A DNA stretch of 41,503 bases from Gemmatimonadota bacterium (GCA_003697105.1 RFFQ01000046.1:1-41503); one strand, 5' to 3'. Shown: positions 1-23,228, numbered from the stretch's first letter. Notes: generated by a model from the letters alone, not told the origin. Program-made: numbers and translations.

Positions 1-2153
1 AAAAAGGTATCCTGACAGACACTTTCGTAAACCGGTTCCCACGAGACATAAAAACTAAAGGTGGTATCGGCGCACAAATCCGCCTGCCGAACATCAAACG
101 AAAGGGTGGTTGTAGAATCCCCAAACAGCGTCCCACCATTGCCTGTATAAGTAAAATCACCATTTCCGGCATTATAGCTCCAATCCGAAGCAACATTTTC
201 CACCGTCAACGTACTGGCATTTAAGTCCGATTGAATCACAAAATTAAGGGCACGCCCCCCATTGGTGTTAGTAACCGGAAGCGAAACCGTTTCGGGATAA
301 CCACTCTCCACATTGACCGTACCGGGAAAGGTGATGTTCACGTTGGGTTGTTTTAGCAAGAACGTTAAGCCAGTGGATACCGTTTGCGAACCGGTAGTAC
401 ATGGCTCGCCTGCTGTAGAGGGGACCGAAAGACTATCACAACCATTCACATAGACTTCAAAGGAATAGGTGGAATCATATCCAGCTTCAATTACCGGGAA
501 AAGTGCAGTAAAATAACGGCTGGGAATGTTTGGTGTTACATTTCCACTACCGAGAAAGGACCCGGCAACATATACAAAATCCGCGAACCATGTCGTACTA
601 TCAGTGACATTAAACAAGCGACCTTCACCCGTATTTTTAAGGCGCACTTCAACGCGGATCGTATCCTCAAACGAACCAATCACCGATGATGAAGGTGTGA
701 TCGGTGTTCCGTTTTTCTCGATAGCAACCACTTCCAAGACCAGATTCCCAATCACGACATCATGGGTAAACGTGGTGCTAGCAGAGATGGGGTTATTCTG
801 GTCATCTTCCCCCCGAATCTGCACTGGATTAATATACGTCGCGGAAAGCACCGTACAATCGGTCTGCATGTAGTGATCAATCCGCAGCGTATCCCCCACG
901 GCTAACCGTTGGGCGGCATTAAATTGCCACCGGACGGAATCTGGGGAGAAAACAGTGGTCACAAAATCTCCCGGGGAGCTCAGTGTTAAGCCACCATTAA
1001 TAATTTGGCTGGTGGACTTATAATCAAACCCAGAATCAAACACATTGATAACCGTAAAATCTTCTAGGGCGCTCCCACCGATATTGGTAATCCGGATGGA
1101 GTACCAATCGCCGGCGGTATCATTGCGGTCATGCTGGAGTTCTGCCACAAATAACTCAATCTGCAACGCCGGATCATTTGTGACCCCTGGCGAGACATCT
1201 CCCCCCGTCCGGATCACCCAATCCGTACCATTGTTGGTATCCGTACCATTGGGTGCCAACGCGATCGAATTTCCTGCCACCAAGCCGGTAATATCAATAT
1301 CGTTTACCCACGGCATATCACACGGAGGTGCATTCACATTACCTCCTGTACCATAGGCGATATAATCCACATCATTGCCCAGATCGGTGGTTAAAAGAAT
1401 ATCATCGCCAGCATCGGTAAAAAATTCACCCCCACCGGCATAAAAATGGTAAACCGGACCGACAAAATCGTCAGTACCACTCCCTGCATGGAACACGACA
1501 TATTCACCCGCGCCAACAATTTGATCCGGAAAGGTGTAGGTATTACCATTTTGATTTGATATCGTCCAACCGTTGATATTGTCGCCCGTCACCACATAGA
1601 GTTCCACCCATTCATTGGCGGCGGCGCCAGTTACACTCGCTTCATTAATGACAAACTTACCCAAATCACCATTGGAAGTGCTAATGGAGATATTATGCGT
1701 ATCCGTATCCGTCCCCGCTGGACTCCCAAATGCCGTAACCGAACTGACAATAGATGAAGGCAGATTACAGGTGGTCAGCAGGTCATACGTGATCACAATA
1801 CTATCGCCCGGCGCTAACACATCATTTGAAAAATTGAAAAAGATGAGACTGTCTGGGGAAGGATTGGAATAACTGAGGGTAATTCCACTACCATTGCGGG
1901 TAGCTGTGGGAGCCGGAGTCGAATCAAACAGCAGGCTATCGGGTAGATTATTAACGACCCAGAGCGAATCTGTCGCCGCCCCCGCCGTATTCCGAATCGT
2001 GATCGTAAAGGTTTCGCCATTGGCATCATTCCGGGTCATGGAGGCGGGACCCGAATGGGTCACACTCAACGTTTGCGAGAAGACAATCGGCGTATAAAAG
2101 AACCCAATGATAAGACCGATCAAAACCACACATGAGTAAAATCGAGGTGACAT
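1..2153 (-). CDS. Large secreted surface protein with DUF11-like/Ig domains and a lamin-tail domain (LTD); 3' end runs off the window
   Basis: Not in the ORF track because it has no stop in the window. Translated by hand from ATG 2153 (AGGA upstream): MSPRFYSCVVLIGLIIGFFYTPIVFSQ signal peptide, then FTITIRN..VVNNLPDSLLF..LAPGDSIVITY (DUF11-like), FVINEAS..NEWVELY..GWTISNQNGNTYTFP..GEYVVFH (LTD, ~1660-1180), then further YSIRITNIG and VRLKNTG Ig-like repeats. Frame stays open to position 1. Confidence 0.9.
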   Translation of the reverse strand, partial: MSPRFYSCVVLIGLIIGFFYTPIVFSQTLSVTHSGPASMTRNDANGETFTITIRNTAGAATDSLWVVNNLPDSLLFDSTPAPTATRNGSGITLSYSNPSPDSLIFFNFSNDVLAPGDSIVITYDLLTTCNLPSSIVSSVTAFGSPAGTDTDTHNISISTSNGDLGKFVINEASVTGAAANEWVELYVVTGDNINGWTISNQNGNTYTFPDQIVGAGEYVVFHAGSGTDDFVGPVYHFYAGGGEFFTDAGDDILLTTDLGNDVDYIAYGTGGNVNAPPCDMPWVNDIDITGLVAGNSIALAPNGTDTNNGTDWVIRTGGDVSPGVTNDPALQIELFVAELQHDRNDTAGDWYSIRITNIGGSALEDFTVINVFDSGFDYKSTSQIINGGLTLSSPGDFVTTVFSPDSVRWQFNAAQRLAVGDTLRIDHYMQTDCTVLSATYINPVQIRGEDDQNNPISASTTFTHDVVIGNLVLEVVAIEKNGTPITPSSSVIGSFEDTIRVEVRLKNTGEGRLFNVTDSTTWFADFVYVAGSFLGSGNVTPNIPSRYFTALFPVIEAGYDSTYSFEVYVNGCDSLSVPSTAGEPCTTGSQTVSTGLTFLLKQPNVNITFPGTVNVESGYPETVSLPVTNTNGGRALNFVIQSDLNASTLTVENVASDWSYNAGNGDFTYTGNGGTLFGDSTTTLSFDVRQADLCADTTFSFYVSWEPVYESVCQDTF

Positions 2154-2258
2154 CACGCATTCCTGTTCAAAAAAATGATGATTACCGGCGGATCACATGT
2201 TTATTTTTTTGATACGAACTGAAAAAATCTAAAAAACAAGTCGTGGCGTGCATTCAGG

Positions 2259-5200
2259 TTATCGAATCCGAATTGGCACATAGTGCTGGTGCTTCATCCC
2301 AGAACCCCCCCGATAAGAGAGTTCAACCCAAACCGGTACAAATGTTTGCTGATAATCCGCATCCACCTGAAGGGTGACCACGTGCGTTTGATGGCTGTGC
2401 CGGGACAGTTTATTCAACCGCCATACCGACTGACCCAGATGAACTCCTTCTGCCGGGCTGGTTATATTTAATTTTACGTAATAGGCATCGCCATCACCGT
2501 TATTTTGCACAACCACCACCAGTTGCCCCGTACTACCCGTGCTGAGGGACATATCCGGGGTGAAACTATACGCCAGATACGGCAATTGCGCCGGGTCCGT
2601 GGGAATGGGAACATCCCCAAACACCGGCTCAATATCCGGTGATGGATCGGTACTCGCCAACGCCGTGTTGACGGTCTGGTTGACCTCCTGCACGGTCTGA
2701 TTAATGGATTCCATCACCGGTTCGGTTTGTGTCAATACCTCTGGATTCAAGGTCAACAAGGAGAGCATCGGTGTACTGGAAAGCGTCACCGGCGAATATA
2801 AGCCATTTTTCTCAATCAACCCAATCGTTGCCATGGGGTCAAATTGCCGGATATAATCCGGTACTTCTTGCATCAGTACGTGATCATTCTCCGCTAATTC
2901 CACCACAGCCACATCGCGGTTCTCTGCGGAGACCGGTGTCCTCACGCCACTGAGTAATTCGGGGTCGGGGGCACTGGTGAAAACTTGCTCATCCAATTTC
3001 ACCCGCAGACTGGCGAAAGGACCTTGCTTCCAATAGCTATAATCGGAAAAATCGCGATCCTCGAAGCCGGTAATATTGTAGCCCAAAATCCCTTGGAGAT
3101 TTTGGACAAGCCGCATCCCGACTTCTGCACCCAAACTGTATTGGTAGGTATTCGTCTGGTATTGATGAAGAACCCGTGCTCCAATAGTCAGGTCAAAGCG
3201 GTCTGTCAAATCGTACACCATTTCGGCTAAGCCTAAATCGGTATAGATGGTAAAGGGGTCTAATATTTCAGATTCCCAATCGGTACGCTTAATAGCATAG
3301 CGCCCGCGCAATTGCAACCGGGGCGTTTTTTGGTAAACCGCTTCGGCGGAAACCAACGTTCGGGCGGCAACATACTCCTGCCCTCGATTATAGCGGAACC
3401 GTAACATGGCTAAAACATTTAAGCGATCATGATCCAGAGGGCGAAATGCCCAACCGGCATACCCATCGGATTTGATATTATCCCGTTTGTCTTTCAAATC
3501 CTCATACCAGTAGGTTTGGCGGGCGATAAAATCCACGCCATTTTCAAACCGTTGCCGGGTTTGAAAGTCGATGACATGCTTATCGGAATCATCTCCCATC
3601 CGAATTTCATATTTACCTGAAACTTGGCTGGTGGCAGTCCGCCGGTACGCGGCATTCGCCCCGAAAACATAAAAATCTTCCCGCTGTTGCCCGCTGATTT
3701 TCTGTACAGATTCTCCCCGGACACCCAGATGAAGGGTTTCTCCGAAGGTAAATTTTTGGCGTGCCCCTTCGGTGTACGAGGTACTTTTATTATCAAACGC
3801 AGTATGAGTATAGAGGTCAGTATTTTTTAACACCGTCAATTCCAAACCGGCTTTCGCCCGCAGGGGATTTTCGGTCGAATCAATTTCATCATGTTGGTAT
3901 TCCGCGTTTCCAAACAACCGAATTTTATCAAACAGATGCAGACCTTGCCGGAAATCAAAACTGGCAGTGGATTTGGATGGGAATTGGTCAATCACATCGC
4001 CACTCAAAATTCGGGCATGACCCACCGACAGTTTGAGGTTATTCGTTGGAGCAAAGGTCAATTCGCCTTTTGCCATTTGGGACTCTTCTTTGGAAGTAGC
4101 GCCCTCGCTTTCGGTATACTGATAGCCCACAGCCGCCTCAACACCCGGTAGACCAAAGATAAGTTCCGTGTTATTGACTCGTGTTGTCAGGTCTTTATTG
4201 AGATGATCCCGAACATAGGCTTCACCTCCTAAGCTAATTTTGGTGCGGTTACGGCTACCTAAGCTGAACCGGTATCGCAGCCCATATTTTTCGGTACCCC
4301 GTTCTGCCGACGTGATGCTCGGGTTGGAAAAACTGGATTCCTGATAGCGATAGTACAATTCCACCTGCTTCGTGTTGGATAACGTTTTCACATTCATCAA
4401 GTAGGCTTTACCGGAGGAATCCGCCAATGAGGTGGGGTCTGTGTGTTTGGACTGGGCATATTCCCCTCGAACCTGAATCTTCCGGTTAAATAGGTTCGCT
4501 TTGGCATCGGTACCCAGCAATTCGTAATTTTGAAATTGATCGGCGTTTTCTTCGACCACAGCAGTGACCCCAATTTCACCCACTTCCGGATACCGGATAG
4601 CCGCACGACCGCCATATTTATAATATTTAGCATCCTGCGAGCGGCTTTCATACTGAACGATGATATAAACCGGATTCAAATCAAGGTCTAACGCTGGAAC
4701 CGCTTGCTCAAACAGAATCGACCCATCATCATAATCAATTTGATAATCAGTATGCCGGACTAAATCTTTCCGGCTCAGGATATTTTCAGAATGGAAGCGA
4801 TCCCGCACTTCCACCGTCACTTTTTCACTATTTTCCACCAGAGGGACATGAGACAAGAAGTAATAACCTGAAATACCTTCACTGGGAATTTCTTCCCGTT
4901 GAAAAGCCTGATTACTATAGGTTACAAAACCGGTGGCATTCAAATAATCATTTTCCAGATGTGTTTTGACTCCCTGATACGCCCGGTCATATCGTGTCAA
5001 TTCCGTCTGGGTCAATCCGGCGCGGTAATCACCATACATGGTATAAGACTTATTACGCTCAATCCGGACATATAAAGGAGATTGCGACTCGGAATCATAG
5101 CCCGTTTTGCTAGCATCCCCATAAATCGGATAATAACTATTCGGGTCAATTTGTTCAAACAATTTATCCTTATTGGGGACTTTACGGCTATCATATTGGG

Positions 5201-8200: not shown

Positions 8201-10484
8201 GACTTCCATTTTGAATGGGATCGGAGAAGGGTATCCCGTCAACTTTGGAACTACCTTTCACATAGCGGAAACTGTTCGGCATAAAGTCATACAGCCGTCC
8301 ATTGGAAACATATGCGGTCGGGCTCACATTCTCAAAATCAATTTCATATTCCACCAGACCCCCACGCTCGACGGTTTTGCGAAGGACCCGTTTATCAATG
8401 CGGACCATGGGGTTAAGAACGGTAACGACCACAATTTCTGAAAAAGCAACTTCCGTTTCAATGGATTCCAGCGTCGCCATATTGGGAATGCTATCCAAAT
8501 CCACCGCATTATCGATCACTCGGGCATTAAAGGTCACCTGTCCCCACGATTGGCGGGGCAGGGTGGGAAAGGTCCAAATCAGACTCCGGGTGGGTTCATC
8601 GTACCGGGCACTCACCAACACTTCTAGTGAATCGGTTGCCGTTTGGTGAAATTCCGCCTTATTTTGATTATTAATATTGCGCCGGATGACGGACACGGTA
8701 TCCTGATACATCATTAAACGACCATCGGTCCAATTGGTAACATCGGTCAACCGAAAATCGATCTCATCGGTCAAGATGGCATTCGTGATATCAAAAATAC
8801 TTAGATTTTCAAAAGTGATGGTGTACTTCAGCCACTCGCCTGCCTTGACAAATTCTTCCGGTTCCACTTCAATTTTAAGCGGCGCAAAAAAGGCTTGAAT
8901 TCGTTCGATCCGGTCAATGGTGTAATTGGGTCGTGCATCCGGGTCAACGGTGGACTCCACCCGAACGACTAAATCCCAATGCATCGAATTATTATCCCCA
9001 ATAGCGGTGGTATCCGTCACTCCCACCGTGGCAACAATGGTTTGGCGTTCCCCGGGGCGAAGACGCACATCGGGGATACCATCTCCAGACGCATCATCCA
9101 AACGGTCTGTTTGATTCAAGGAATAGAAAAAAACAACGGAATTAGGGGGAAGTGTGCTGTTTTCCCGGTCAAAGAAGACATTAATATCATCCGTCGTATT
9201 ACCGGAATTTAAAATCGTATTAAAAAATACGGCGGGACGTCCTTGCTGGTCTAAGCGGGCGATCTGTCGCACCGAGGAGATATCCGGGGTATCATACCGG
9301 TCCCGCTCCGGATAGTATTCATCGGCGTCATTGGGGAAACGAGGTCGATCCAAAGGACCAATCCAGACTTCAGCAACGGGAGGAATAAGTGTAATGACTT
9401 CATTGGTCTCTTGCGGTTCCCCTTCTAGGGTAGAATAGGAATAGGTACCATAGTTTTCTAACCGCAGATTCCCCGGCACGTTATCATTGACCCGTACCTT
9501 AAAGCGAAACCGTCCCGTTTCCTGCGAACCCAAGCTGAGAATACGGTGCCGGATGCCTAACACATCGGTACCCTCACCGGCGTCCGGTTCTTGATCCACC
9601 CATACGGTATCTTGGATGCCGGAATCAAACACTAAATATTCGGTTTGCCCTTCCGGGAAAACATGAAAACTGCGAGGCACATACGTAATATAAAGACTAT
9701 CATCATCTTGATAGCGGAAAATATCTTGAATGATAACATCACGGGCGGCATTATTCCCTAAATTCCGAAACTCAATGATGTATTCTAAGGTATCGCCTTC
9801 TGCCGCTTCTTGACGATCCACTGACTTATTCACCACCAGATTCGCTCGATTGGAAACATCAACCCGAGCCACATTATCAATATCCGCTGCCGTTGAATGA
9901 ATACTCCGCCCTTCAATATTAAAATAGCCTTGTGCTCCTTCCGGTATCGAGAGGTCCAGTAAGATCGCCACTGCTAAATTAATAAAACCATCCGGTTCGA
10001 TATCTTCTGCTTGGGTAATTTGGGGTTCCCGGGGAGAGGGTAAACCATCCCCGTTCAGATCATGGTAAATACGAATCTGGTCCGGCTCATAATACGGGAA
10101 CCCATTGAAACCTTCCACGTTGAAACAGCGTAAATCGTAAGTATCAGTAATATTGCCTGTATTATATAAGATATAGGAAAAATAGGTTTCAATCCCCGGT
10201 GTGCCAAAACGGGTTTGTCCGGGTGCTTCAACGGTTCCGTTGGGCAGAATTTCCAAACCGTAAACCGGCATAATCTCCGTATATACCGTATTGGAACTAA
10301 CGGTCTGTGGACCTTGGGTGGTACTGTATTTGACATAGGAGGTATTCACAATTTGCATCCCTGCGCGGGCTTTCGCAAAACCCAACGCCGGTAAGCAAAC
10401 CAGAGAGATCACCAATAGCCCGAGCACCCACCAATGGGATCGAGTTTTAAGATATGTCATTATCGGATTCAAAATGGTAGCCAT
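2259..10484 (-). CDS. Giant outer-membrane protein: pilin-like N-terminal domains, DUF11 repeats, SdrD-B-like domain, two OmpA/MotB-like domains, Ig domains, large beta-barrel, C-terminal Ig-like domain
   Basis: ORF 2259..10523; start more likely 10484 or 10460, ahead of the hydrophobic signal WWVLGLLVISLVCLPALGFA. Motifs: NKSVD..GDTLEYIIEFRNLG (DUF11), GRVFVDENNNRIFDEGD (SdrD-B-like), 2x FDTGKA..EGHTD..SNxELSEARA..NRRxE (OmpA-C), and alternating aromatic/Gly beta-strands at ~5370-2980. Confidence 0.9.
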   Translation of the reverse strand: MATILNPIMTYLKTRSHWWVLGLLVISLVCLPALGFAKARAGMQIVNTSYVKYSTTQGPQTVSSNTVYTEIMPVYGLEILPNGTVEAPGQTRFGTPGIETYFSYILYNTGNITDTYDLRCFNVEGFNGFPYYEPDQIRIYHDLNGDGLPSPREPQITQAEDIEPDGFINLAVAILLDLSIPEGAQGYFNIEGRSIHSTAADIDNVARVDVSNRANLVVNKSVDRQEAAEGDTLEYIIEFRNLGNNAARDVIIQDIFRYQDDDSLYITYVPRSFHVFPEGQTEYLVFDSGIQDTVWVDQEPDAGEGTDVLGIRHRILSLGSQETGRFRFKVRVNDNVPGNLRLENYGTYSYSTLEGEPQETNEVITLIPPVAEVWIGPLDRPRFPNDADEYYPERDRYDTPDISSVRQIARLDQQGRPAVFFNTILNSGNTTDDINVFFDRENSTLPPNSVVFFYSLNQTDRLDDASGDGIPDVRLRPGERQTIVATVGVTDTTAIGDNNSMHWDLVVRVESTVDPDARPNYTIDRIERIQAFFAPLKIEVEPEEFVKAGEWLKYTITFENLSIFDITNAILTDEIDFRLTDVTNWTDGRLMMYQDTVSVIRRNINNQNKAEFHQTATDSLEVLVSARYDEPTRSLIWTFPTLPRQSWGQVTFNARVIDNAVDLDSIPNMATLESIETEVAFSEIVVVTVLNPMVRIDKRVLRKTVERGGLVEYEIDFENVSPTAYVSNGRLYDFMPNSFRYVKGSSKVDGIPFSDPIQNGSQAVWVIPDSLAPKEKRTLRYLSVAGVNTQVGEHINVARMTGNPVVPPQQIISPERVKIIEEVTLVSNDDQAVVRVIEGVFRPEGRLLGRVFVDENNNRIFDEGDVPLHKVRLYMEDGRYIITDANGLYSVDGIDPGVHVIKLDMVTVPPDLIPLPVDNHFVGSATTQFVDLMESGLVKANFRLVRPLLATIDVQKAYLSQEVRLLPGQQQEAVQVLEIPESHFDTGKAELLRIPDEFHQLIAFLETHPDWQILIEGHTDIRPIHTPEFPSNQELSEARAEAVAAALDSLGANRANMVIKGYGPSIPKVPNTSLKNMALNRRVEITLLPPGAEKPALNRVQYIFRIDRSFEAMTDVRLVSEDLNGTYLPESVRWNDAPYDSVPQQVDGQFIWNLGDFPDGMKGIFTYAVEVDTENMPEVLGRLAYIEWTDARGNPRRSKEFTLNLQPEFVADENELTFTLGDFLFDTGKADLRPGSYHYLDRIVEILQEIYPTATGRVEGHTDIRPINTPEFPSNWELSEARARVVYQYLVDHGVDPDRMTWAGFAATRPVAPNTTLENMQKNRRTEVIIELPERLSTMESRRQSTRMELKLEADGMFDSLTVKDQLPPQLAYVPGSAEMDGRPLPDPVVLEGGKLEWHLKNVPAGVSFIQYEVKPLGEAVELDSLPKPDVNGKPSSGRKLIRKSKTPTSSVPSSSAETLADVDSSWVSEGVDGEQTPAMPRKEVSEMTREELLALKRNQKAFVLSPQDGEVYTTRSKISVSIQVPLAANYELRVNGKVVPNDQVGEKRLNAAVSLAQYDYFSVPIQLGKNELVAVAIMPGRKEIVSDPVYVYYADRPAQIKFKTEPKYPTSDGVTEPTLIMEILDKNGIHVADNIFVTVAIDHGDFVTPDAHPGMPGHQVRTKDGFAKVQLSPSYEPEVRFFTATISTSFQVSKRIEFLPELRDFTFVALGEGTIGYQTFSGDRSKMPPDVVDDYEEEVWTDAGLQLFLRGRILGKYLLTAQYDSRKVPNKDKLFEQIDPNSYYPIYGDASKTGYDSESQSPLYVRIERNKSYTMYGDYRAGLTQTELTRYDRAYQGVKTHLENDYLNATGFVTYSNQAFQREEIPSEGISGYYFLSHVPLVENSEKVTVEVRDRFHSENILSRKDLVRHTDYQIDYDDGSILFEQAVPALDLDLNPVYIIVQYESRSQDAKYYKYGGRAAIRYPEVGEIGVTAVVEENADQFQNYELLGTDAKANLFNRKIQVRGEYAQSKHTDPTSLADSSGKAYLMNVKTLSNTKQVELYYRYQESSFSNPSITSAERGTEKYGLRYRFSLGSRNRTKISLGGEAYVRDHLNKDLTTRVNNTELIFGLPGVEAAVGYQYTESEGATSKEESQMAKGELTFAPTNNLKLSVGHARILSGDVIDQFPSKSTASFDFRQGLHLFDKIRLFGNAEYQHDEIDSTENPLRAKAGLELTVLKNTDLYTHTAFDNKSTSYTEGARQKFTFGETLHLGVRGESVQKISGQQREDFYVFGANAAYRRTATSQVSGKYEIRMGDDSDKHVIDFQTRQRFENGVDFIARQTYWYEDLKDKRDNIKSDGYAGWAFRPLDHDRLNVLAMLRFRYNRGQEYVAARTLVSAEAVYQKTPRLQLRGRYAIKRTDWESEILDPFTIYTDLGLAEMVYDLTDRFDLTIGARVLHQYQTNTYQYSLGAEVGMRLVQNLQGILGYNITGFEDRDFSDYSYWKQGPFASLRVKLDEQVFTSAPDPELLSGVRTPVSAENRDVAVVELAENDHVLMQEVPDYIRQFDPMATIGLIEKNGLYSPVTLSSTPMLSLLTLNPEVLTQTEPVMESINQTVQEVNQTVNTALASTDPSPDIEPVFGDVPIPTDPAQLPYLAYSFTPDMSLSTGSTGQLVVVVQNNGDGDAYYVKLNITSPAEGVHLGQSVWRLNKLSRHSHQTHVVTLQVDADYQQTFVPVWVELSYRGGSGMKHQHYVPIRIR

Positions 10485-10597: not shown

Positions 10598-13500
10598 CTA
10601 GTCAATCGTGACTTTATACGATACACGCCCTTGTGCCCCGGAATTGAGCCGCCCGTTCGCCGCACTATTCCAAATCCAACGGATATCGGTCACCGTCGGA
10701 TCATTAGCCGCTGCAGTCCAGGTTGCCCCATTGTCGTTACTGTATTCAATGGTATCCGTACCACCGCTACCAATTTCAAACCGTGCTGAATTCGGTACGT
10801 AAGTGGTATTTGCCGGAATATCATCATAGATGTAAACCGTATCCAACGCCGTTGCCGCCGTGTTATAGAAGTTCACATAATACTTCAGTGTATCTTGCGG
10901 AACCCCTTGATTCACGGTAGCAGTTTGGTTATATGTGGTATCTCCATCCGCATAACTACTTGGACCGAGGTTACGAACAGCTTTCCGCACATCCATGCTG
11001 GCATCGATAACGGTCGTAATATCGACCGCGGGGTCAGATGCACCAGTGGCATCTCCCTGACCCACTGCCGTAATCGTTGCCACATCCGAAACACCGTCCG
11101 GAGCGTTGGAGGGGATAAACGCCACAACCCGAATCCGCCAGCTACCACCAATCGGTACAGTATAAAGCAGATCCCATTGCCCGCCGGCAAAGGGCAACGC
11201 ATCCCATTGGTCTGCCGTATCGGGATCTTCCTGATACAAGGCGTAGCTCCAACCGCGGCTAGAACTGATCGTAAAGTAGGAGTTGGTCTGGGAGGTATCC
11301 GCACCCGGAATGATCGTGTTCCCCAAGTTAATCAAATCATGGATATACGAGACTTGAGTATTGGGACGGCCCGAATTTGACCGATCCGGCTCTAGCAAGA
11401 GATTCGGGTTCCGTGGAATACGAATAGAGTCACGGACCGTACTATCAATGTCAGTCTTATTGGTAGAGGTCGCCGTAAAGTACGTTGGATAGGTACCAAA
11501 GGCAGTTGTTGCCGGAAAATCCACCACCGCATACACACATGCCGTATCGCCGCCGGCAACCGGACCAATATCACTAATAGCGGAGAGTTCACTTGCATCC
11601 AAATCACCTTGACAGTCGGCGTCTTCATAGTAGGTCACGTTCCAGGTAGCCGGAAATAGACTTTCCGATAAGGTGTATGTATCGGCCCGGTTTGCTGGGT
11701 TCCGTACGGTCAACGGAATGTTGACAACCGTACTGCTATCGGGGTCAGGCCCTTGGAAGGTGTATGCATTTTCATCCGTAGCCACCGCATCACCACCGTA
11801 AGTATACAAACGGTTCACATATTCCACGGCGGCACCGGTGACATTACGGAAGATGATGGTCGTCCGGTTCACCGCACCAATCACCGCGGTCACCACATCT
11901 CCATTTGTAGCAGAGGTTAGTGGCGCCACTTCCAACGTATCGGTCGCCGCATTAATAACGGCTGAAATACGCGTGATCTCATTGCCAACATTAATAAACT
12001 GACCCACTTGAAAACCCGTCGCATCTGCTACTTGTAAATACTGCGTACTCGGGGTAGAACCCTGAGTTGGGTCTGCGGTCAACGTGGTTTCTAGATTGGG
12101 GTTGTTGGTTGAGAAACCGGGAGCATAGGAGGTATCCGCCGGGTTGATGGACGATTGGGCATAGATCACAATGGTAGAGTCTGTACCGGCATCCACATTG
12201 GCATCCACATACACTTGGACCCGAATCATCGCCGTATCTCCCGGCGCCACGGTGCCCACATCACGGTTAAGGTCACCATCCACATTACCCAGCGGTGTTG
12301 CTCCGTCAAAGAACGAAACCGTGAAACTCCCTGGCTTCTGGCTACCATTGGCACCAAACCGCAAAATGTTGATAATGTCATCCTGCAAACCATTGTTCCG
12401 CACCGTGAGATAAATATTTTGGGTTTCTCCGCCAGCAATCGTATTGATGACAACGGTATCTTCGCTGGCGTTCGTGCCAAAGTCATGCGCCGTTGGTAAC
12501 CCAGCGGGACCGATAGAAACCGATACTTTTTCATAACCCGGACCGTTCAAGCGGGTTTGAACCGGGTTGGTCGGCTGATTGGCTTCCGATTGGTCATCCA
12601 AACGATACTCGACTTGCCCTTGGTTCCGGATAGGAGAACGGCTGGCGGTCAGGTCAACCGGAATGCGAACATCAAACTCAAAATCCCAGTTTTGACCGGC
12701 AATCAAAGTACCGCTACCCGAAGAGGTGGTACCGGTAACAAAACCAATCCCGCGGATGAAATAACCGGCGCCTTGGCTGGCAGCCCATGTTTCGGCATTG
12801 GTTCGGTCGTCAAACCACATCCCAGTACTTCCATCGGGCCAAGAGCCATCCGTCGCATCCGAGAGAGTATCGGTAGCGGCAGGTGTGGTGGTACCCACCC
12901 AATACAGGATACTCCCTGCGGCTGGGGTGTACTGAGTATTGTTATCCACCCGGACAATGGGGAAGGGTTCGGAGGTTAAATCCGCATCATCCCGGGTAGG
13001 TAAGGGGTCCGTAATAATGACCCCATAGTAAAACGCATCCGCCGTTCCGTCACTACCGGTATCAACATGGATCGAGTCAAAACCAGTGGATTGATTACCA
13101 ATGTTGCTCCCATAGAGCGAATAAACAAGCGTATCGCCTGAAGACGCATCGGCAACGTTGACATTTTTGTTAGCAGTCACAATCGCCTCTTCGCTCACCG
13201 TTGTTAAATGATAGTTGACGCTATCATTACAGGCTTGACCCGAAACCGTGTCGCCGGCAGCGGCATAACCCCGAATATCGATTTCAATAAGCTGCCCACT
13301 CGTTGCCGTTACCGGAACGGTGTACGATACAATTAGGGAAACCTGATTATTCGGTGCGTTATAATCACCCGGCACATCCGTGACATAGGTAGTAGTATCT
13401 TCACCGGCGTCAATCAACCCGTTGTTATTTGTATCCAGATAGATTGCGGCATTCGAAAGACTAAAGCCGGTCGCATTAGTATTACTACCGTTAGCAAGTG

Positions 13501-13825
13501 AAACATAAAAATCGTTCAAGTCATTACCGGCATTGGTAAGGGTGTATTGATAGTACACAACCTGTCCGGGGGCGGCACTTTGCTGGTGAGCATAAGAGGG
13601 GGCGCTCCCGCTCGGGGTAATATCCATCCCGCAGATTTCCTGAACGGTGGTGATCACTTGATTCGATGGGGTCGTAAATTGCTGACCCGTCTGATCCACA
13701 TATACCGCCGAGGCAACGTTGGTAATGTCCGTACCCGCGCGCGTATATGCATTTGCTGACGATGTGGCCATCAAGATGCCCGCCATCAGCAACACAACAA
13801 GTATGAGTAACTTGTGATTAGACAT
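10598..13825 (-). CDS. Secreted multi-domain DUF11/Ig protein (~1075 aa), candidate major fibre subunit
   Basis: ATG 13825 with AGGAGG RBS; signal peptide MSNHKLLILVVLLMAGILMATSSANA. Mature N-terminus YTRAGTDITNVAS; repeated YTLTNxGN/LTVRNxG Ig-like domains; Ca-loop-like DTNNNGLIDAGE; last DUF11 domain ends abruptly at GRVSYKVTID. Confidence 0.9.
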   Translation of the reverse strand: MSNHKLLILVVLLMAGILMATSSANAYTRAGTDITNVASAVYVDQTGQQFTTPSNQVITTVQEICGMDITPSGSAPSYAHQQSAAPGQVVYYQYTLTNAGNDLNDFYVSLANGSNTNATGFSLSNAAIYLDTNNNGLIDAGEDTTTYVTDVPGDYNAPNNQVSLIVSYTVPVTATSGQLIEIDIRGYAAAGDTVSGQACNDSVNYHLTTVSEEAIVTANKNVNVADASSGDTLVYSLYGSNIGNQSTGFDSIHVDTGSDGTADAFYYGVIITDPLPTRDDADLTSEPFPIVRVDNNTQYTPAAGSILYWVGTTTPAATDTLSDATDGSWPDGSTGMWFDDRTNAETWAASQGAGYFIRGIGFVTGTTSSGSGTLIAGQNWDFEFDVRIPVDLTASRSPIRNQGQVEYRLDDQSEANQPTNPVQTRLNGPGYEKVSVSIGPAGLPTAHDFGTNASEDTVVINTIAGGETQNIYLTVRNNGLQDDIINILRFGANGSQKPGSFTVSFFDGATPLGNVDGDLNRDVGTVAPGDTAMIRVQVYVDANVDAGTDSTIVIYAQSSINPADTSYAPGFSTNNPNLETTLTADPTQGSTPSTQYLQVADATGFQVGQFINVGNEITRISAVINAATDTLEVAPLTSATNGDVVTAVIGAVNRTTIIFRNVTGAAVEYVNRLYTYGGDAVATDENAYTFQGPDPDSSTVVNIPLTVRNPANRADTYTLSESLFPATWNVTYYEDADCQGDLDASELSAISDIGPVAGGDTACVYAVVDFPATTAFGTYPTYFTATSTNKTDIDSTVRDSIRIPRNPNLLLEPDRSNSGRPNTQVSYIHDLINLGNTIIPGADTSQTNSYFTISSSRGWSYALYQEDPDTADQWDALPFAGGQWDLLYTVPIGGSWRIRVVAFIPSNAPDGVSDVATITAVGQGDATGASDPAVDITTVIDASMDVRKAVRNLGPSSYADGDTTYNQTATVNQGVPQDTLKYYVNFYNTAATALDTVYIYDDIPANTTYVPNSARFEIGSGGTDTIEYSNDNGATWTAAANDPTVTDIRWIWNSAANGRLNSGAQGRVSYKVTID

Positions 13826-14037: not shown

Positions 14038-14559
14038 TTATTTAACTTTAACCCGGTATTTAAACACAATTTCAGCCGCTGGTTCCAGCGGTTCAAACAA
14101 TGTCCATTGAATATGAGTGTACATATCGGGTGTGGCGATTTTCTTTTTCTCAACCAGATTTCCATTTTCGTCTTCTTCCATCACCGTATATGCAATGGGC
14201 GGAACTTGATACGTCTTACCTTTATCAATGCTGTATTTCAGTTCCACATTCGCCATTTCTGTGGCGGTGCTATCAATATACACCGTTTGGTCGGGGATTG
14301 GGCCCACAATGCTGACATCGTTTGCCGCCGTTTCCCCTTCGTTCCAGTACACAAGAGTGTATTCAATCACATCTTCCGGAAAGGCTTTTTCTGCGGGCGC
14401 AAATTTTTCTTTGACTACCTTTTCGCCATCCACAATTTCTTCCACAAAAAGCACTTTTTGAGCGCGCATTTCACCCTTTAATGCAGGTCCCGCAACCTGA
14501 GCGAGAACCGTCGCGGCAAAAAGTAGAAAAAGGATAAACCCACCACTAAATTTTGTCAT
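14038..14559 (-). CDS. Small secreted single DUF11-like domain protein (~173 aa)
   Basis: ATG 14559 with GGAGGA RBS; signal peptide ending VLA-Q; AFPEDVIEYTLVYWNEG..VGPIPDQTVYI..YSIDKGKTY..YTHIQW..YRVKVK stop. Confidence 0.88.
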   Translation of the reverse strand: MTKFSGGFILFLLFAATVLAQVAGPALKGEMRAQKVLFVEEIVDGEKVVKEKFAPAEKAFPEDVIEYTLVYWNEGETAANDVSIVGPIPDQTVYIDSTATEMANVELKYSIDKGKTYQVPPIAYTVMEEDENGNLVEKKKIATPDMYTHIQWTLFEPLEPAAEIVFKYRVKVK

Positions 14560-15370: not shown

Positions 15371-16513
15371 ATGAAACGGGTTTGCATTTTAGGTTCGACG
15401 GGGTCGATTGGAGTCAATAGCTTGAAAGTAATCAAGCAGTTTGAAGGAGAGATGGAGGTTGTCGCACTATCGTGCTACCAAAATATCACTAAACTGGCGG
15501 AACAAGTTGAAAAGTACCGTCCGCAACAAGTTGCCATTGTCGATTCGAGCAAAATAAGCGCATTTAAGGCACGATGCCGTGTACCCGTGGAAGTGCTTTC
15601 TGGCGTGGATGGCTTAGTAGAAATAGTGAAAAACCCTGATATAAATACAATTATCACTGCCGTGGTTGGTGCAGCAGGTCTCCTCCCTACAATTCGGGGC
15701 ATCCAAGAAAGCAAAAACATCGCCATTGCGAATAAAGAGACCTTGGTTATCGCCGGGGAGTTAGTGATGCAGGAAGCCCGCCGGCATGGGGTCTCGTTAC
15801 TCCCTGTCGATAGTGAACACAGTGCCATTCACCAATGTTTGCATCACCGCCAACCGGACGAAATTCAAAAACTGATTCTGACGGCATCCGGGGGACCCTT
15901 CCGAACCCTACCGGCAACAGATTTTGAGAAGATCACCGTTGAAGATGCACTAAATCACCCCACGTGGAACATGGGCGCTAAAATCACAATTGATAGTGCC
16001 ACCCTGATGAATAAGGGTCTGGAGGTCATTGAAGCACACTGGCTATTCGGCGTTGATGTGGATCGTGTGGAAGTGTTGGTACATCCCCAATCGATCATCC
16101 ATTCCATGGTTGAATTTGTGGACGGCTCAATTATGGCTCAACTCGGCTCACCGGACATGAAATTGCCGATCCAGTATGCCTTGACTTACCCTTATCATCG
16201 GGCACCGGCCTCCATCACCACCGATTTTGTCCAGTTGGGGCAACTCACCTTTGAAGCCCCCGATATGGATCGATTTCCCTGCTTACGGTTAGCCTATGAA
16301 GCCGCCCGAGCCGGTGGCACCTTCCCCGCCGTGCTGAATGCCGCAAATGAAATCGCCGTAAATGCCTTTTTAAACCGGCAGATTCGCTTTATCGAAATCC
16401 CCCAATTGATTGAAACCACGATGAAGGCACACCAAAACCATGCCCACCCCACCCTAGCGGAAATCCTACATGCCGACCAGTGGGCACGGGATTTTACCCA
16501 GCAAACCATTTGA
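15371..16513 (+). CDS. dxr: 1-deoxy-D-xylulose-5-phosphate reductoisomerase
   Basis: ILGSTGSIG, IANKETLV, LPVDSEHSAI, LTASGGPFR, HPTWNMGAKITIDSATLMNKGLEVIEA motifs; ATG 15371 preceded by AAGGA. Confidence 0.98.
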   Translation: MKRVCILGSTGSIGVNSLKVIKQFEGEMEVVALSCYQNITKLAEQVEKYRPQQVAIVDSSKISAFKARCRVPVEVLSGVDGLVEIVKNPDINTIITAVVGAAGLLPTIRGIQESKNIAIANKETLVIAGELVMQEARRHGVSLLPVDSEHSAIHQCLHHRQPDEIQKLILTASGGPFRTLPATDFEKITVEDALNHPTWNMGAKITIDSATLMNKGLEVIEAHWLFGVDVDRVEVLVHPQSIIHSMVEFVDGSIMAQLGSPDMKLPIQYALTYPYHRAPASITTDFVQLGQLTFEAPDMDRFPCLRLAYEAARAGGTFPAVLNAANEIAVNAFLNRQIRFIEIPQLIETTMKAHQNHAHPTLAEILHADQWARDFTQQTI

Positions 16514-16526
16514 CAAATACCGGCTG

Positions 16527-17291
16527 ATGAACGATATTCTCCATCCCATAGACAGCGAACGCCATCCCGAACGTCCGCAACCGGAAATCCACTACCGTAC
16601 CAGTTGGGCAGATCGCCTACCGGTAGCGTTTGCCCACATTATCGGGGCGATACTGATTTCCGGCAGTGTCATGTTAGGGTGGGTGATGTTAGGAACACTG
16701 TTCCGCTTTCCGGTGCTATCACTTCTGTTTGATAGCATTTTCGCCGGAAGCCTAGCCGTTTCCTTCTTTTTAGTGCTTCGGGGAATCGCTTTTTTAGGGG
16801 AAACCCTCTCCTTCCGGTTAGATGACCGGCGGTTGCGCATTCAAGTGGAACTATTCGGCAAAGCGGTGGCGTTTAAAGCCGTGCCACTCCGCACCATAAC
16901 CGGTATTCACCGCCAAAATTCCGGTGATTATACCGAAAATATAACCGACCTGCTTGAATCCGCGGTGAATTTCATCCTCCGGCGGCGCAGTTATGTGGAG
17001 ATCGAAATTCAGAAACGACTTTCCCGCAATCCGGTCGTTTCGCGGGAGATGCACCAAGCGTATTTTCAACCGGAAGTGGACTTACCTACCGGTAGCCGCT
17101 TGGTGATTCAAACGACAGAGGGCATGATCAGCATTCCCAAAAGTACAACCCATTTTAAGACCTATCAGGCATTGGAAATGCGGTTGCTCGGGCAAAAAAC
17201 CACCCCCCCACCAACCCCCCCAGAGGCGACCAAAGCGGTAGATGAAGCGCAATTTCGGGTGATTATGCCCGACGAATACGAAAACGAATAG
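16527..17291 (+). CDS. Hypothetical membrane protein (two TM helices plus soluble domain)
   Basis: ORF fills the gap between dxr and the next gene; two hydrophobic stretches; ATG 16527 chosen to avoid overlap with dxr. Confidence 0.75.
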   Translation: MNDILHPIDSERHPERPQPEIHYRTSWADRLPVAFAHIIGAILISGSVMLGWVMLGTLFRFPVLSLLFDSIFAGSLAVSFFLVLRGIAFLGETLSFRLDDRRLRIQVELFGKAVAFKAVPLRTITGIHRQNSGDYTENITDLLESAVNFILRRRSYVEIEIQKRLSRNPVVSREMHQAYFQPEVDLPTGSRLVIQTTEGMISIPKSTTHFKTYQALEMRLLGQKTTPPPTPPEATKAVDEAQFRVIMPDEYENE

Positions 17292-17304
17292 AAAGGATAG
17301 AAAT

Positions 17305-18345
17305 ATGCAAGTGATTCGCATCCACGAAACCGGCAGCCCCGGCGTATTACGTTGTGAAGAGATCGATCCTCCCGTAATTCGCCCCGATCAAGTTTTGGTA
17401 CGTATCAAAGCCACCGCCATTAACCATTTGGATATTTGGATCCGGAAAGGTATCCCGAAAGTCCCCCTACCCATGATTTTAGGCAGTGATGCGGCCGGAA
17501 CAATTGCCGAAGTCGGCTCCGCGGTGCACGGATGGAACGTGGGTAACGACGTGGTATTGCAACCGGCAGTCAGTTGTGGGCGGTGTGAATCCTGCCTAAA
17601 AGGACGCGATAATTTCTGTGCACACTATGAAATCCGTGGGGAACAGGTGAACGGGTTCAATGCCGAATATGTAGCGGTCTCGCCGGCAGATATGATTCCC
17701 AAACCCCCATCAATTGCCTATGAAGAAGCCGCCGCCATCCCCCTTGCCTTTATGACCGCTTGGGAAATGCTCATCCGTAAGGCGCAACTCCAACCCGGAC
17801 AAACCGTACTCATCTGGGGGGCGGGGAGTGGGGTCGGAAGTTCCGCTTTGCAAATCGCTAAATTATGCGGCGCCTACATCATTGCCACCGCCGGTAGTAA
17901 AACCAAACTGAAACAAGCGAAAGCGCTCGGTGCCCACCACGTTATTCATCATTATGAACACGATGTGAGTGCCGAAGTCAAAAAAATAACCAACCGGCGC
18001 GGGGTCGATGTGGTTGTAGAACATGTCGGACAAGCCACGTGGAATCAGAGTCTAAAATGCCTAGCGAAAGGAGGGAAACTGGTTACCTGCGGCGCGACCA
18101 CGGGCTATGATGTCAAGATTGACCTGCGCTTCCTCTTTTTCAAACAGCACCAAATCCTCGGCTCAACAATGGGGTCCCGCGGAGATTTACACCAAATTAT
18201 AAAACTCGTGGAACACGGTCATTTCAAAGGCATTGTGGACCGGATATTTCCGTTCGATCAAGTCGCTAATGCCCACCAATATGTAGAGGATAAACACCAT
18301 TTTGGCAAAGTCGTTCTTATCCCGAACAGCCAATTCTCATCTTAA
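17305..18345 (+). CDS. Zinc-binding alcohol dehydrogenase/quinone oxidoreductase (MDR family)
   Basis: AINHLD, ILGSDAAG, CGRCESCLKGRDNFC structural Zn site, GAGSGVG nucleotide-binding loop. Confidence 0.93.
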   Translation: MQVIRIHETGSPGVLRCEEIDPPVIRPDQVLVRIKATAINHLDIWIRKGIPKVPLPMILGSDAAGTIAEVGSAVHGWNVGNDVVLQPAVSCGRCESCLKGRDNFCAHYEIRGEQVNGFNAEYVAVSPADMIPKPPSIAYEEAAAIPLAFMTAWEMLIRKAQLQPGQTVLIWGAGSGVGSSALQIAKLCGAYIIATAGSKTKLKQAKALGAHHVIHHYEHDVSAEVKKITNRRGVDVVVEHVGQATWNQSLKCLAKGGKLVTCGATTGYDVKIDLRFLFFKQHQILGSTMGSRGDLHQIIKLVEHGHFKGIVDRIFPFDQVANAHQYVEDKHHFGKVVLIPNSQFSS

Positions 18346-18368
18346 TCATGTTAGAAATGAAGGATAAT

Positions 18369-19010
18369 ATGCAAGCAAATTCTAAAGCTACGTTCAAAAA
18401 AGCGATTACAAAGGAGGAAATCAACCAACTCCCGCTGGGGCAATATTCCGGAAAAATTCATCTGATCCGCCGTGTTGAAGACGTTCAAGATGCCGTGAAA
18501 CAGCTCCAGCAGGAGACTGTGCTCGGATTCGATACCGAAACGAAGCCGTCTTTCAAAAAAGGGGTCAGCCATTTACCGGCACTGTTGCAACTTGCCGGCA
18601 GTAAGGCGGTCTATATCTTTCAGATTAAGTTGATTCAATTACCCCCACCCCTGCGGGAAATTTTATCAAACCCGAATATTATCAAAACCGGGGTAGCGCT
18701 GGATCATGACATCCAAAAATTACAAGAAATCGCTCCTTTTTTTGATGCCGGTTTTGTCGATCTTCGCACGATTGCTGAGCAAATTGGGATTAAACATACC
18801 GGATTGCGGAGTTTAGCGGCAAATTTACTGGGTTTTCGGGTTTCCAAAAGTGCACAACTTTCTAATTGGGCACGGGAGGAATTATCTCAAAATCAAATTA
18901 TATATGCCGCTACGGATGCCTGGGTCAGCCGGGAATTATATCTGGTTTTTCGCGATCAGCTCAAAGCCAATATTCCGGTAAATGGCTCGGTGGCACTCCG
19001 GCGGTACTAA
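18369..19010 (+). CDS. 3'-5' exonuclease (DEDDy, WRN/RNase D-like)
   Basis: LGFDTETKP, LLQLA, SNW...YAATDAW motifs; start 18369 or 18348. Confidence 0.92.
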   Translation: MQANSKATFKKAITKEEINQLPLGQYSGKIHLIRRVEDVQDAVKQLQQETVLGFDTETKPSFKKGVSHLPALLQLAGSKAVYIFQIKLIQLPPPLREILSNPNIIKTGVALDHDIQKLQEIAPFFDAGFVDLRTIAEQIGIKHTGLRSLAANLLGFRVSKSAQLSNWAREELSQNQIIYAATDAWVSRELYLVFRDQLKANIPVNGSVALRRY

Positions 19011-19048
19011 ACCCTAAATCCTGAAACCCTAATCCCTAAACCCTGAAA
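19008..19048 (+). repeat. Short degenerate 7/8-mer tandem repeat
   Basis: TAAACCC TAAATCC TGAAACCC TAATCCC TAAACCC TGAAA fills the intergenic space. Confidence 0.75.
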
Positions 19049-20134
19049 ATGATCGAACCCACCGGCGGATCATACCTGCTCCTTGCCATTTACCTTGCAT
19101 TTACGGTTGGATTTTCCTTTCTGTGCTCGATTTTAGAAGCTGTGTTGCTTTCAACCTCGTTTTCCCATGTTGAAATTTTGATTGAGAATGGGCGCCAGTC
19201 CGGTAAATTGATGCGCCACCATAAACAGAATATTGAGCAAGCTATATCTGCCATCCTGACCGTGAATACCGTAGCAAATACGGCGGGTGCAACCCTCGTT
19301 GGTGCGGAAGCCATGAAGATTTACGGTCATGGCATGGCGATTATTTCGATCATTCTTACGTTTACCATTCTCGTATTTTCAGAAATTATCCCGAAAACAC
19401 TTGGTGCGGTTTACTGGAAACAGATTTCGCCATTTGCGGCGTATGCCATCTGGATAATGGTAGGGATTTTTTATCCCTTCGTATGGGCATTCCAGCGTTT
19501 GGCGGGACTCCTAACCCCGAACCAACCGACCCCCACGATCACCCGTACAGAATTAACGACACTGGCGCGGATCGGTCAGATGGAGGGCACATTGCACGAA
19601 AAAGAACACCGGATATTGCGAAATCTGCTCCGGCTACATTCGATTCAAGTCAGCGATATTATGACGCCCCGCACCGTCCTGTTTGCCCTACCGGAAGAGA
19701 TGACGATCGCGGAAGTATTAAAAGAACACCCGCGGCTGACGTACTCTCGCATCCCCATCTATGCCGGAAATGTGGATCATATCACCGGCTTTGTGCTCCG
19801 GTTTGATATTTTCTCTGAAATCACCCAACAAAACACCGAAAAACCCCTGAAAGAACTCAAACGCGAAATTCATGTCATTCCAGAAATGGTCAGTGTGGAC
19901 CGGGTTTTGGAAGCGTTTTCAGAACGTGGGGATCATATCTTTTGGGTGGTGGATGAATACGGCGGTACCGCCGGTATCATTACCCTAGAAGACGCCTTGG
20001 AATGCTTGCTCGGCATGGAGATCGTCGATGAATCCGATACCGTAACCGATATGCGGGAACTGGCGCGGAAGCGTCACTTACGCCGGTTACAAACCTTGAA
20101 AAAAATGAATGAAGTCCAACAAACGCCACCTTGA
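19049..20134 (+). CDS. CNNM (DUF21) + CBS-pair membrane protein, CorC/HlyC family
   Basis: SFLCSILEAVLLS, FSEIIPKTLG, IMTPR, YSRIPIY, VVDEYGGTAGIITLED. Confidence 0.93.
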   Translation: MIEPTGGSYLLLAIYLAFTVGFSFLCSILEAVLLSTSFSHVEILIENGRQSGKLMRHHKQNIEQAISAILTVNTVANTAGATLVGAEAMKIYGHGMAIISIILTFTILVFSEIIPKTLGAVYWKQISPFAAYAIWIMVGIFYPFVWAFQRLAGLLTPNQPTPTITRTELTTLARIGQMEGTLHEKEHRILRNLLRLHSIQVSDIMTPRTVLFALPEEMTIAEVLKEHPRLTYSRIPIYAGNVDHITGFVLRFDIFSEITQQNTEKPLKELKREIHVIPEMVSVDRVLEAFSERGDHIFWVVDEYGGTAGIITLEDALECLLGMEIVDESDTVTDMRELARKRHLRRLQTLKKMNEVQQTPP

Positions 20135-20153
20135 ACACTCAATGAGACACACC

Positions 20154-20654: not shown

Positions 20655-20655
20655 A

Positions 20656-20687
20656 ACCCCTCCGGAGATGGACTCCTTGAGGGGGTC
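20656..20687. terminator. Imperfect hairpin between convergent genes, possible bidirectional terminator
   Basis: ACCCCTCCGGAG-ATGGA-CTCCTTGAGGGGGT with an A-run on the left. Confidence 0.45.
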
Positions 20688-20713
20688 TAAATATCCGGTG
20701 CTAATCCAAATGG

Positions 20714-21673: not shown

Positions 21674-21738
21674 AGCAAAACCTCCCTGATAGTTAGCAGA
21701 TTGTGTGCAAATTTAGCGACATCTTCAAATTTGTAAAG

Positions 21739-23091: not shown

Positions 23092-23126
23092 GGGATACCT
23101 TTCCTATCGTCATCAGATAAAGAGAT

Positions 23127-23149
23127 GGCGGAGATGAGCGATCTCCGCC
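23127..23149 (-). terminator. Probable intrinsic terminator
   Basis: GGCGGAGAT-5nt-ATCTCCGCC 9-bp stem, followed on the minus strand by ATCTCTTTAT. Confidence 0.5.
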
Positions 23150-23228
23150 GGTTGCCGGTTATCATGGGTTTCGTGATAAAACCGTCTCGTGTTCAAACAC
23201 CGGTTAAAGCTATACCGCATATCACGTT

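Follow-up and report, generated by a model that had tools for sequence, protein, structure and literature searches.

What becomes of an isopeptide-forming domain when its reactive residues are encoded at opposite ends of one gene? This question is raised by P0002, the 1075-amino acid (aa) product of the gene at 10598-13825 on the minus strand of a 41,503-nucleotide (nt) stretch of DNA from a Gemmatimonadota bacterium (GCA_003697105.1, RFFQ01000046.1:1-41503), which was analyzed at its full length and is hereafter called the window. In the solved CLIPPER domain (9IFR), K715 and N806 are joined by an isopeptide bond with D748 as the third residue of the triad, and the Asn is carried on the penultimate of nine strands (PMC12617251). 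The same Lys/Asp/Asn triad of CLIPPER/DUF11 domains is present in P0002, but it is divided over both ends of the protein. An earlier note, made from the sequence alone, had taken this division to predict isopeptide crosslinks between subunits, and that interpretation is supported here as a prediction. The C-terminal domain of P0002 breaks off after its seventh strand, the mature N-terminus is homologous to strands 8 and 9, and the protein is probably the shaft subunit of a fibre.

The two ends of P0002

The P0002 reading frame opens at an ATG (13825) with AGGAGG located 7 nt upstream. It encodes, in order, a signal peptide, a donor hairpin, a CARDB-like domain, a complete DUF11 domain, three further immunoglobulin (Ig)-like domains, and an acceptor DUF11 domain (Table 1). 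By eye, residues 1-26 appear Sec-like: the n-region contains a Lys, a hydrophobic core follows, and the segment ends in the cleavage motif A-N-A. The mature N-terminus (residues 27-62, YTRAGTDITNVASAVYVDQTGQQFTTPSNQVITTVQ) carries N36 (codon 13718-13720), the proposed reactive Asn. At the opposite end, the acceptor domain carries K948 (10982-10984) within the motif DVRKAV and D1001 (10823-10825) within the motif YDDIP, and the chain ends as ...GRVSYKVTID, three residues beyond the seventh strand (V-x-F/Y-x-V-x-V). Checking of the codons bore out the statement in the earlier note that the last domain possesses the Lys and the Asp and no Asn strand. The same holds for the internal domain, which was said to be complete: K220, D273, and N401 lie there in a single chain, and conservation of each is 90% or higher.

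The acceptor domain is recognized by the NCBIfam model for the DUF11-type repeat (TIGR01451), which matches residues 975-1016 with 27.7 bits against a cut-off of 24. Pfam DUF11 remains under its cut-off for P0002, as the full protein gives no match and the isolated domain 13.6 bits; the relatives P0016 (26.7) and P0005 (25.9) score above it. No TasA-family domain was found in the Pfam scan of P0002, in which the acid is Asp, and neither an LPXTG motif nor a membrane anchor was found at the P0002 C-terminus.

A truncated domain and its missing hairpin

Four independent lines of evidence agree in indicating, at the level of sequence, that the C-terminal domain is truncated and that the N-terminus is its missing piece. 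When aligned by hhalign with the internal complete domain, the acceptor matches its front part, with D1001 opposite D273 (probability 97.4%). The hairpin in turn matches the two final strands of that domain (probability 86.6%, E 4.5e-6), where N36 falls on N401 and N55 on N420. The earlier note had held that the mature N-terminus supplies the Asn, which stands, whereas the single strand that it implied is in fact a two-strand hairpin.

The continuation of intact domains was followed in 20 long multi-DUF11 proteins, taking the 372 internal domains that match the acceptor profile to its end. An I-x-N-x-A strand begins within 28 residues after 309 of them, and thus the complete version of the domain continues with the element that P0002 carries at its N-terminus. 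In natural fusions, namely P0012 (3865 aa, two junctions) and P0014 (2023 aa), acceptor and hairpin are contiguous in one chain, with the layout ...VxFGVQI, 4-5 residues, AGxxVxNQxSATY.... The Pfam DUF11 match crosses the P0012 junction, whose Asn is fragment residue 139, and extends to residue 156 of the fragment (profile position 106). Both proteins consist of two or more shaft units fused head-to-tail, and their C-termini contain dockerin-like repeats (…DCDGIVNIDDLTIV…).

In the 138 single-unit homologs, the tail beyond the seventh strand is 3-10 residues in length, leaving no space for more strands. Pfam DUF11 matches in the relatives end at profile position 84-94 of 114, at most ~30 residues from the protein end. 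Across the genome, the donor motif follows a signal peptide in just two proteins, P0002 and the downstream P0004. A third match to the regular expression for the donor motif is without a leader and looks unrelated.

Conservation of the triad

At E <=0.001, the family profile, built from eight homologs, matched 33,190 cluster representatives, of which 3232 reached E <=1e-30; both totals take in unrelated multi-DUF11 giants. Among the best 150 profile matches, most are 850-1050-aa proteins matching end to end. Conservation was assessed in a set of 138 proteins of 750-1150 aa (out of 157), from which four were left out as apparently N-terminally cut or as false regular-expression matches to give the 134 rows of alignment A2. 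N36 is invariant in A2 (134/134), and conservation of K948 and D1001 in the same alignment is 90% or more. The AGTxIxN motif surrounding the Asn was found in 133 of the 138 homologs and, by eye, in P0105 also. In a C-terminal alignment of the 138 homologs, K948 is retained in 137, D1001 in 136 with a Glu in one more, and P1004 in all 138. Both residues of the bond proposed in the earlier note, the Lys and the Asn, are thus kept by nearly every homolog. Metagenomic loci, of which 80 were collected, contributed 73 complete shafts, and here Lys was present in 71/73, Asp in 71/73, and Asn in 73/73.

Among the shaft homologs, the few departures from the triad involve the acceptor residues. Lys and Asp are lost together in P0100 (K to L and D to T), and K to T accompanies D to N in L062_19 (L062 9872-12502) and L088_5 (L088 3242-5896), which are closely related and were counted as one event; the donor Asn is kept in all three. 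The sole Asp substitution with Lys retained is to Glu (P0028). As judged from these alignments, conservation of the triad exceeds chance.

Modelling of the hairpin and acceptor

Residues 930-1075 and residues 27-75 were modelled as a complex, each with a 134-row alignment. The interaction score (ipSAE) was 0.91 (0.91, 0.93, and 0.89 in three runs), whereas the best of 3 controls reached 0.00. In the calibration of the tool, that mark is reached by 58/80 solved complexes and 2/110 mismatched pairs, figures that apply only roughly here because the P0002 complex was modelled from a custom paired alignment. The predicted local distance difference test (pLDDT) of the partners is at least 82, and at least 91% of the contacts are common to the runs. 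In the model, residues 34-45 run antiparallel to residues 995-1002, which form the Asp strand, while residues 52-64 lie beside residues 946-950, the Lys strand, and beside residues 969-976. K948, D1001, and N36 are all found in the modelled interface. The hairpin is therefore placed in the acceptor with its Asn strand along the Asp strand and its second strand along the Lys strand, in keeping with the split domain that the earlier note had described. The geometry of the triad itself is deduced from this pairing of strands and from 9IFR.

Gene order and neighbouring genes

Judged from their domains, the neighbours of P0002 fit an arrangement of cap, shaft, and anchor (Table 1). This order was followed in the 80 metagenome loci, which were obtained with a narrower alignment (A4) and represent a proteobacteria-like 'IGNQAxATYTD' subgroup, not the window's own branch; a search with the single P0002 protein gave 1 related locus. 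A complete shaft with donor and acceptor is encoded in 73/80 loci. Where at least 600 nt lie downstream (62 loci), the next gene opens with a donor hairpin in 43 and is recognized by its barrel alone in another 10, giving the shaft-then-anchor order in 53/62. All 31 complete anchors match the P0004 barrel (31/31), and the Asn is kept in 43/44 anchor donors. Among the 26 anchors with enough flank, an acceptor-only protein of 829-1432 aa comes next in 22, and these tail proteins retain the Asp in 22/22 and, by eye, the Lys in 22/22. A small acceptor-only gene lies upstream of the shaft in 21/60 loci, a count that is a lower bound, the detector being weak for caps. The same order is found in Candidatus Latescibacterota (CP070677.1), which encodes a 164-aa acceptor-only protein, a 900-aa shaft, a 1972-aa anchor, and a 1485-aa acceptor-only protein. 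The anchor of this organism (L001) retains a second Asn in the donor region (NSNQV).

Table 1. Positions of P0002, its parts, and neighbouring features, counted from the first letter of the window.
Feature	Position	Strand	Basis
Putative shaft gene P0002	10598..13825	-	Open reading frame (ORF) and translation; large family by profile search
Signal peptide of P0002, residues 1-26 (MSNHKLLILVVLLMAGILMATSSANA)	13748..13825	-	By-eye reading
Donor hairpin of P0002, residues 27-62, corresponding to beta8 and beta9 of the CLIPPER domain	13640..13747	-	hhalign, conservation, model
Internal complete DUF11/CLIPPER-like domain of P0002, residues 214-425	12551..13186	-	Codons checked; triad conservation
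Acceptor ('catcher') domain of P0002, residues 940-1075, corresponding to DUF11 without the last two strands	10601..11008	-	Homolog alignment, hhalign, model, codons
Candidate cap P0003, 173 aa, single DUF11-like domain	14038..14559	-	TIGR01451, alignments, AlphaFold2 (AF2), VIA-align
Putative anchor P0004, roughly 2700 aa	2259..10460	-	Pfam, NCBIfam, shaft profile, AF2, Foldseek, atlas
Donor hairpin of P0004 (ARAGMQIVNTSYVKYSTTQGPQTVSSNTVYTEI)	10269-10370; Asn 10344-10346	-	Follows the signal peptide
OmpA domains of P0004	7227-7490 and 6513-6815	-	Pfam/NCBIfam
Giant beta-barrel of P0004	3078-5570	-	AF2 model, Foldseek, atlas
CARDB-like C-terminal extension of P0004	2358-2549	-	Domain scan
Partial gene for a 718-aa secreted protein with a lamin-tail domain, without donor hairpin	3..2156	-	Cut by the contig end
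18-bp perfect stem-loop	10534..10575	-	Located past the shaft stop codon, ahead of the anchor start

The likely start of P0004 is the Met at 10460, within an ORF that is open from 10523. Its parts are, in order, a signal peptide, a donor hairpin, a shaft-like N-terminal module, DUF11 domains, two OmpA domains, a giant beta-barrel, and a CARDB-like extension. The shaft profile matches the first ~500 residues (E 1.3e-64). A conserved module of ~830 aa was modelled by AF2, from a 32-row alignment, as ~30 long antiparallel strands with a mean pLDDT of 77.6. Foldseek matches to this barrel were exclusively large outer-membrane barrels (SlpA, LptD, MtrB, SprA, and FimD/PapC) with template modelling (TM) scores of 0.2-0.28, and a language-model atlas assigned it to outer-membrane or TonB-receptor-like clusters (0.96). 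In the metagenome anchors, a phmmer search with the P0004 OmpA region gave 0 matches and OmpA motifs were present in 0/31 complete anchors; on the sequences compared, OmpA is a lineage-specific addition and not a conserved part of the system. P0004 runs ~280 residues past the barrel end (…LRVKLDEQVF; 2358-3077, minus strand), a stretch that includes the CARDB-like domain. In most related anchors, the chain stops only a few residues from the matching KFDE motif.

The candidate cap P0003 is encoded upstream of P0002. It has a signal peptide and no donor hairpin, and it ends as ...FKYRVKVK after the equivalent of the seventh strand. TIGR01451 matches P0003 with 29.9 bits. In a wide VIA-align search with the P0003 model, 9IFR ranked third (Z 8.5, root-mean-square deviation 2.1 Å over 91 aa), tied with unrelated Ig-like folds, and in a Foldseek search with the same model 9IFR fell outside the top 50.

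At the other end of the operon, the 718-aa lamin-tail protein occupies the slot that a large acceptor-only protein holds in related loci. A second contig (C144) encodes at 15720-24690, on its minus strand, a protein of at least 2990 aa that is N-terminally cut and has at its C-terminus an acceptor-type domain in which Lys and Asp are present (…MQLVKSVD…QMSYKVTIK). The lamin-tail protein and the C144 protein may be the halves of one gene; contig C144 and the start of the window showed no overlap in sequence. The three operon proteins and eight neighbouring proteins gave no Pfam match to a chaperone, an usher, or a sortase, and sortase was not searched genome-wide.

The stem-loop that follows the shaft gene has a predicted stability of -36.7 kcal/mol (z -6.2), and none of the shuffled sequences (0/200) was equally stable. 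In related loci, the 100 nt past the shaft stop codon are structured (z <= -3) in 36/53, compared with 2/53 controls taken from mid-gene, as scored against mononucleotide shuffles, which are lenient. The stem-loop is likely to be an attenuator or an mRNA stabilizer, and it may set the ratio of shaft to anchor.

Proposed assembly of the fibre

On balance, we favour a model in which P0002 forms the shaft of a fibre joined via a split CLIPPER (DUF11) isopeptide domain. First, P0002 subunits would be exported by Sec. The C-terminal domain of each subunit would hold seven of the nine strands along with K948 and the catalytic D1001, while the mature N-terminus of the next subunit would donate the two missing strands as a hairpin bearing N36. 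Docking would complete the beta-sandwich and place the three triad residues next to one another. An isopeptide bond between Lys and Asn is then predicted to form spontaneously, in a sortase-free manner, and to lock the subunits to one another. Through repetition of this step, shafts would polymerize head to tail into an extracellular fibre that grows from its base. The distal end would be occupied by acceptor-only proteins, i.e., by P0003, whose joint is probably non-covalent, and probably by a giant adhesin. P0004, with a donor hairpin and no acceptor, would terminate the chain and tie the fibre to the envelope through its giant outer-membrane barrel and its two OmpA-like domains, with the barrel serving as the predicted export pore.

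It is possible, and suggested here tentatively, that such operons represent an undescribed and widespread class of Gram-negative surface fibre that operates without a chaperone, usher, sortase, or ATPase. Its joints would be natural splits of CnaA-type domains, its last subunit would be fused to a barrel of ~30 or more strands acting as both pore and anchor, and adhesins that end in an acceptor could be exchanged for one another on the same shaft.

Points against the model and alternative explanations

Several observations weigh against the covalent fibre, the first of which concern the model and the identity of the reactive Asn. Among the 25 lowest-error contacts listed for the complex, K948 contacts N55, not N36, and N55 is likewise nearly invariant; thus, the choice of reactive Asn rests on the position of N806 in 9IFR. 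N806 lies 12 residues before the last-strand Cys motif and 22 before the domain end, and in all six tabulated CnaA-like families the Asn lies 17-29 residues from the domain end (PMC12617251). N36 was assigned as the reactive residue because the bonded N806 sits on the penultimate strand, and because N36, at 26 residues from the end of the hairpin, falls within the range of CnaA-like domains, compared with 7 residues for N55. The model score may also partly reflect likeness to intact solved CLIPPER/CnaA domains. In addition, covariation by mutual information with average product correction (MI-APC; 134 rows) placed 1 of the 20 top donor-acceptor pairs in the modelled interface (chance, ~30%), a result that lends the interface no support and is dominated by the poorly aligned loop 1021-1039.

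A second group of observations concerns the partners of the shaft. P0003 keeps Lys35 and has Gly86 (14302-14304, minus strand) in place of the catalytic Asp, and the Asp is missing from the metagenome caps in 21/21 cases, with Leu, Ile, Val, or Gly at the position and a variable Lys. Because the caps are without the Asp, the distal joint is probably non-covalent, as far as sequence can indicate. The AF2 model of P0003 is confident for the protein alone (pLDDT 92.5), and so the cap may need no donor; it is the weakest part of the fibre model. At the proximal end, the Latescibacterota anchor (L001 4731-10649) has Ser at the position of the donor Asn (GYQISSRSTAEY). The OmpA domains of P0004 sit between the donor end and the barrel, a position compatible with more than one membrane topology and export route. 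Finally, no full-length shaft homolog was found in the two other species genomes of this small phylum (G001 and G002), in which the best matches (E 2.5e-7 and 2.3e-11) amount to no more than DUF11 repeats. The relatives closest in sequence occur in other phyla at 33-44% identity, and the distribution of the family, as seen from these searches, is patchy.

The alternative that survives best is one in which the hairpin complements the next subunit non-covalently and Lys, Asp, and Asn serve folding or hydrogen bonding only. This explanation is unlikely, yet it is the most serious competitor. Non-covalent joints are described as the rule among donor-strand fibres, in the accounts available of type 1 and P pili, TasA, and cannulae, and BsaA oligomers resist sodium dodecyl sulphate even when the bond is absent (10.1101/2024.11.04.621531). 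The Asp-free caps would fit such a joint, as would the Ser that replaces the donor Asn in one anchor and the Val that replaces it in another. However, the triad is near-invariant in this family, whereas its positions are not universally conserved across the DUF11 family in the published account (PMC12617251). The joint loss of Lys and Asp also speaks against a non-covalent joint, and the one Asp substitution that retains Lys is to Glu, which is a catalytic acid in CnaB-like domains too (PMC12617251).

If the bond is accepted, the number of shafts per fibre may be questioned. A three-protein stalk would contain cap, shaft, and anchor at 1:1:1, with the split domains connecting separately exported modules of one long adhesin. 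The natural fusions lend it some support, given that they hold two or more units per chain and that the joined product would resemble an ordinary long DUF11 adhesin; the modelled pair, moreover, is a shaft self pair only. That same pair speaks for polymerization, as the shaft's own hairpin was modelled with high confidence in the shaft's own acceptor domain. The conserved stem-loop fits an excess of shaft over anchor and in this way favours a polymer over a 1:1:1 chain. Such a stalk is rather improbable.

It is more improbable still that the hairpin completes the acceptor of the same molecule, whether as self-cyclization or as a self-capped storage form. Self-complemented monomers are known for FimA (PMC6615685), and a transient periplasmic form of this kind would be compatible with the data, no chaperone gene having been seen in the operon and its eight neighbours. 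The two ends of P0002 are nonetheless five domains apart, and a covalent intramolecular bond would be a dead end. Bonds between subunits are favoured over self-cyclization because the operon encodes an acceptor-only protein and a donor-only anchor, partners that make sense only for joining between molecules.

Last, a reading without any exchange, in which the hairpin is part of the first domain of its own subunit and the C-terminal domain is simply a short Ig variant with seven strands, could draw on the confident model of P0003 alone and on DUF7507 domains, which are described as compact and seven-stranded (PMC12617251), but it is very hard to reconcile with the homology of the hairpin to strands 8-9 of the complete domain, with the fusions that put it directly after the acceptor, with the score of the modelled complex (0.91 vs 0.00), and with a donor motif that in this genome is confined to proteins of these operons.

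Comparison with known systems

Among the closest known systems are the CLIPPER/DUF11 domains (PF01345 and TIGR01451), to whose family P0002 belongs by profile and with which it shares the Lys on strand 1, the Asp in D-x-x-P, and the Asn on the penultimate strand. These domains likewise occur in Gram-negative surface proteins, and the characterized adhesin also has an OmpA-like anchor (PMC12617251). The difference lies in connectivity, as 9IFR has its nine strands and its bond in one chain, whereas the P0002 domain breaks off after strand 7. Strands 8-9, together with the Asn, are located on the N-terminus of a partner, and the bond would thus connect two proteins. In the available part of the CLIPPER report, DUF11/CLIPPER bonds are described within one chain and intermolecular bonds are mentioned as background only (PMC12617251). 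No published account of a split or intermolecular DUF11/CLIPPER assembly was found in the full-text literature, a scope that leaves out subscription journals and supplements. Sequence searches of solved structures returned only chance antibody matches for the acceptor and 0 matches for both the P0012 junction and a 4208-aa DUF11 giant.

In mode of assembly, a close parallel is BsaA of Clostridium perfringens, a TasA-family protein for which 'donor strand exchange and lock' has been described (10.1101/2024.11.04.621531). There, an N-terminal segment enters the next subunit and a spontaneous Lys-Asn bond forms with a catalytic acid and without a sortase; oligomers are abolished by Ala substitution of the three residues (10.1101/2024.11.04.621531). 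As far as the accessible text of that report describes it, BsaA differs in having the TasA fold and not a CnaA-like one, Glu in place of Asp, and a single donor strand in place of a hairpin. It also differs in its Gram-positive host, in its use of a SipW peptidase and of a secretion route tied to type IV pili, and in having no outer-membrane barrel anchor. The archaeal threads (Saci_0406) similarly combine donor strand complementation with proposed covalent bonds between subunits and no known enzyme (PMC9715654). According to the portion of the account available, they differ from P0002 in lacking a Lys/Asp/Asn triad, in an unrelated fold, and in an archaeal host without an outer membrane (PMC9715654).

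The division of labour within the operon resembles that of chaperone-usher (type 1 and P) pili, in which the tip is without a donor, the shaft has both elements, the terminator is without an acceptor, and the final component is an outer-membrane barrel. They differ in that the operon and its eight neighbours here show no match to a PapD-like chaperone or to an usher, the donor consists of two strands, the joint is potentially covalent, and anchor and barrel reside in one protein. The P0004 barrel resembles FimD/PapC at TM 0.21-0.28, below SlpA and LptD. Judged from these models, the likeness of P0002 to the chaperone-usher system is one of working and not of family membership.

A known split isopeptide domain is SpyTag/SpyCatcher, an engineered split of the CnaB2 domain of FbaB in which the last-strand peptide bonds spontaneously with the remainder through a Lys-Asp bond with a Glu catalyst. 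As proposed for P0002, a peptide with a reactive residue docks onto the remainder of a domain that holds the Lys and the catalytic acid. SpyTag/SpyCatcher is man-made and derived from a CnaB domain, whereas P0002 is a putative natural split of a CnaA-like domain used for fibre building. Spontaneous isopeptide chemistry is already known inside single adhesin domains and in engineered tag/catcher pairs. If the model is correct, nature also uses this chemistry to polymerize proteins in outer-membrane bacteria, adding a pilus-like route beside chaperone-usher, type IV, type V, curli, and sortase assembly. The family would then offer many natural and mutually diverged tag/catcher pairs for protein engineering.

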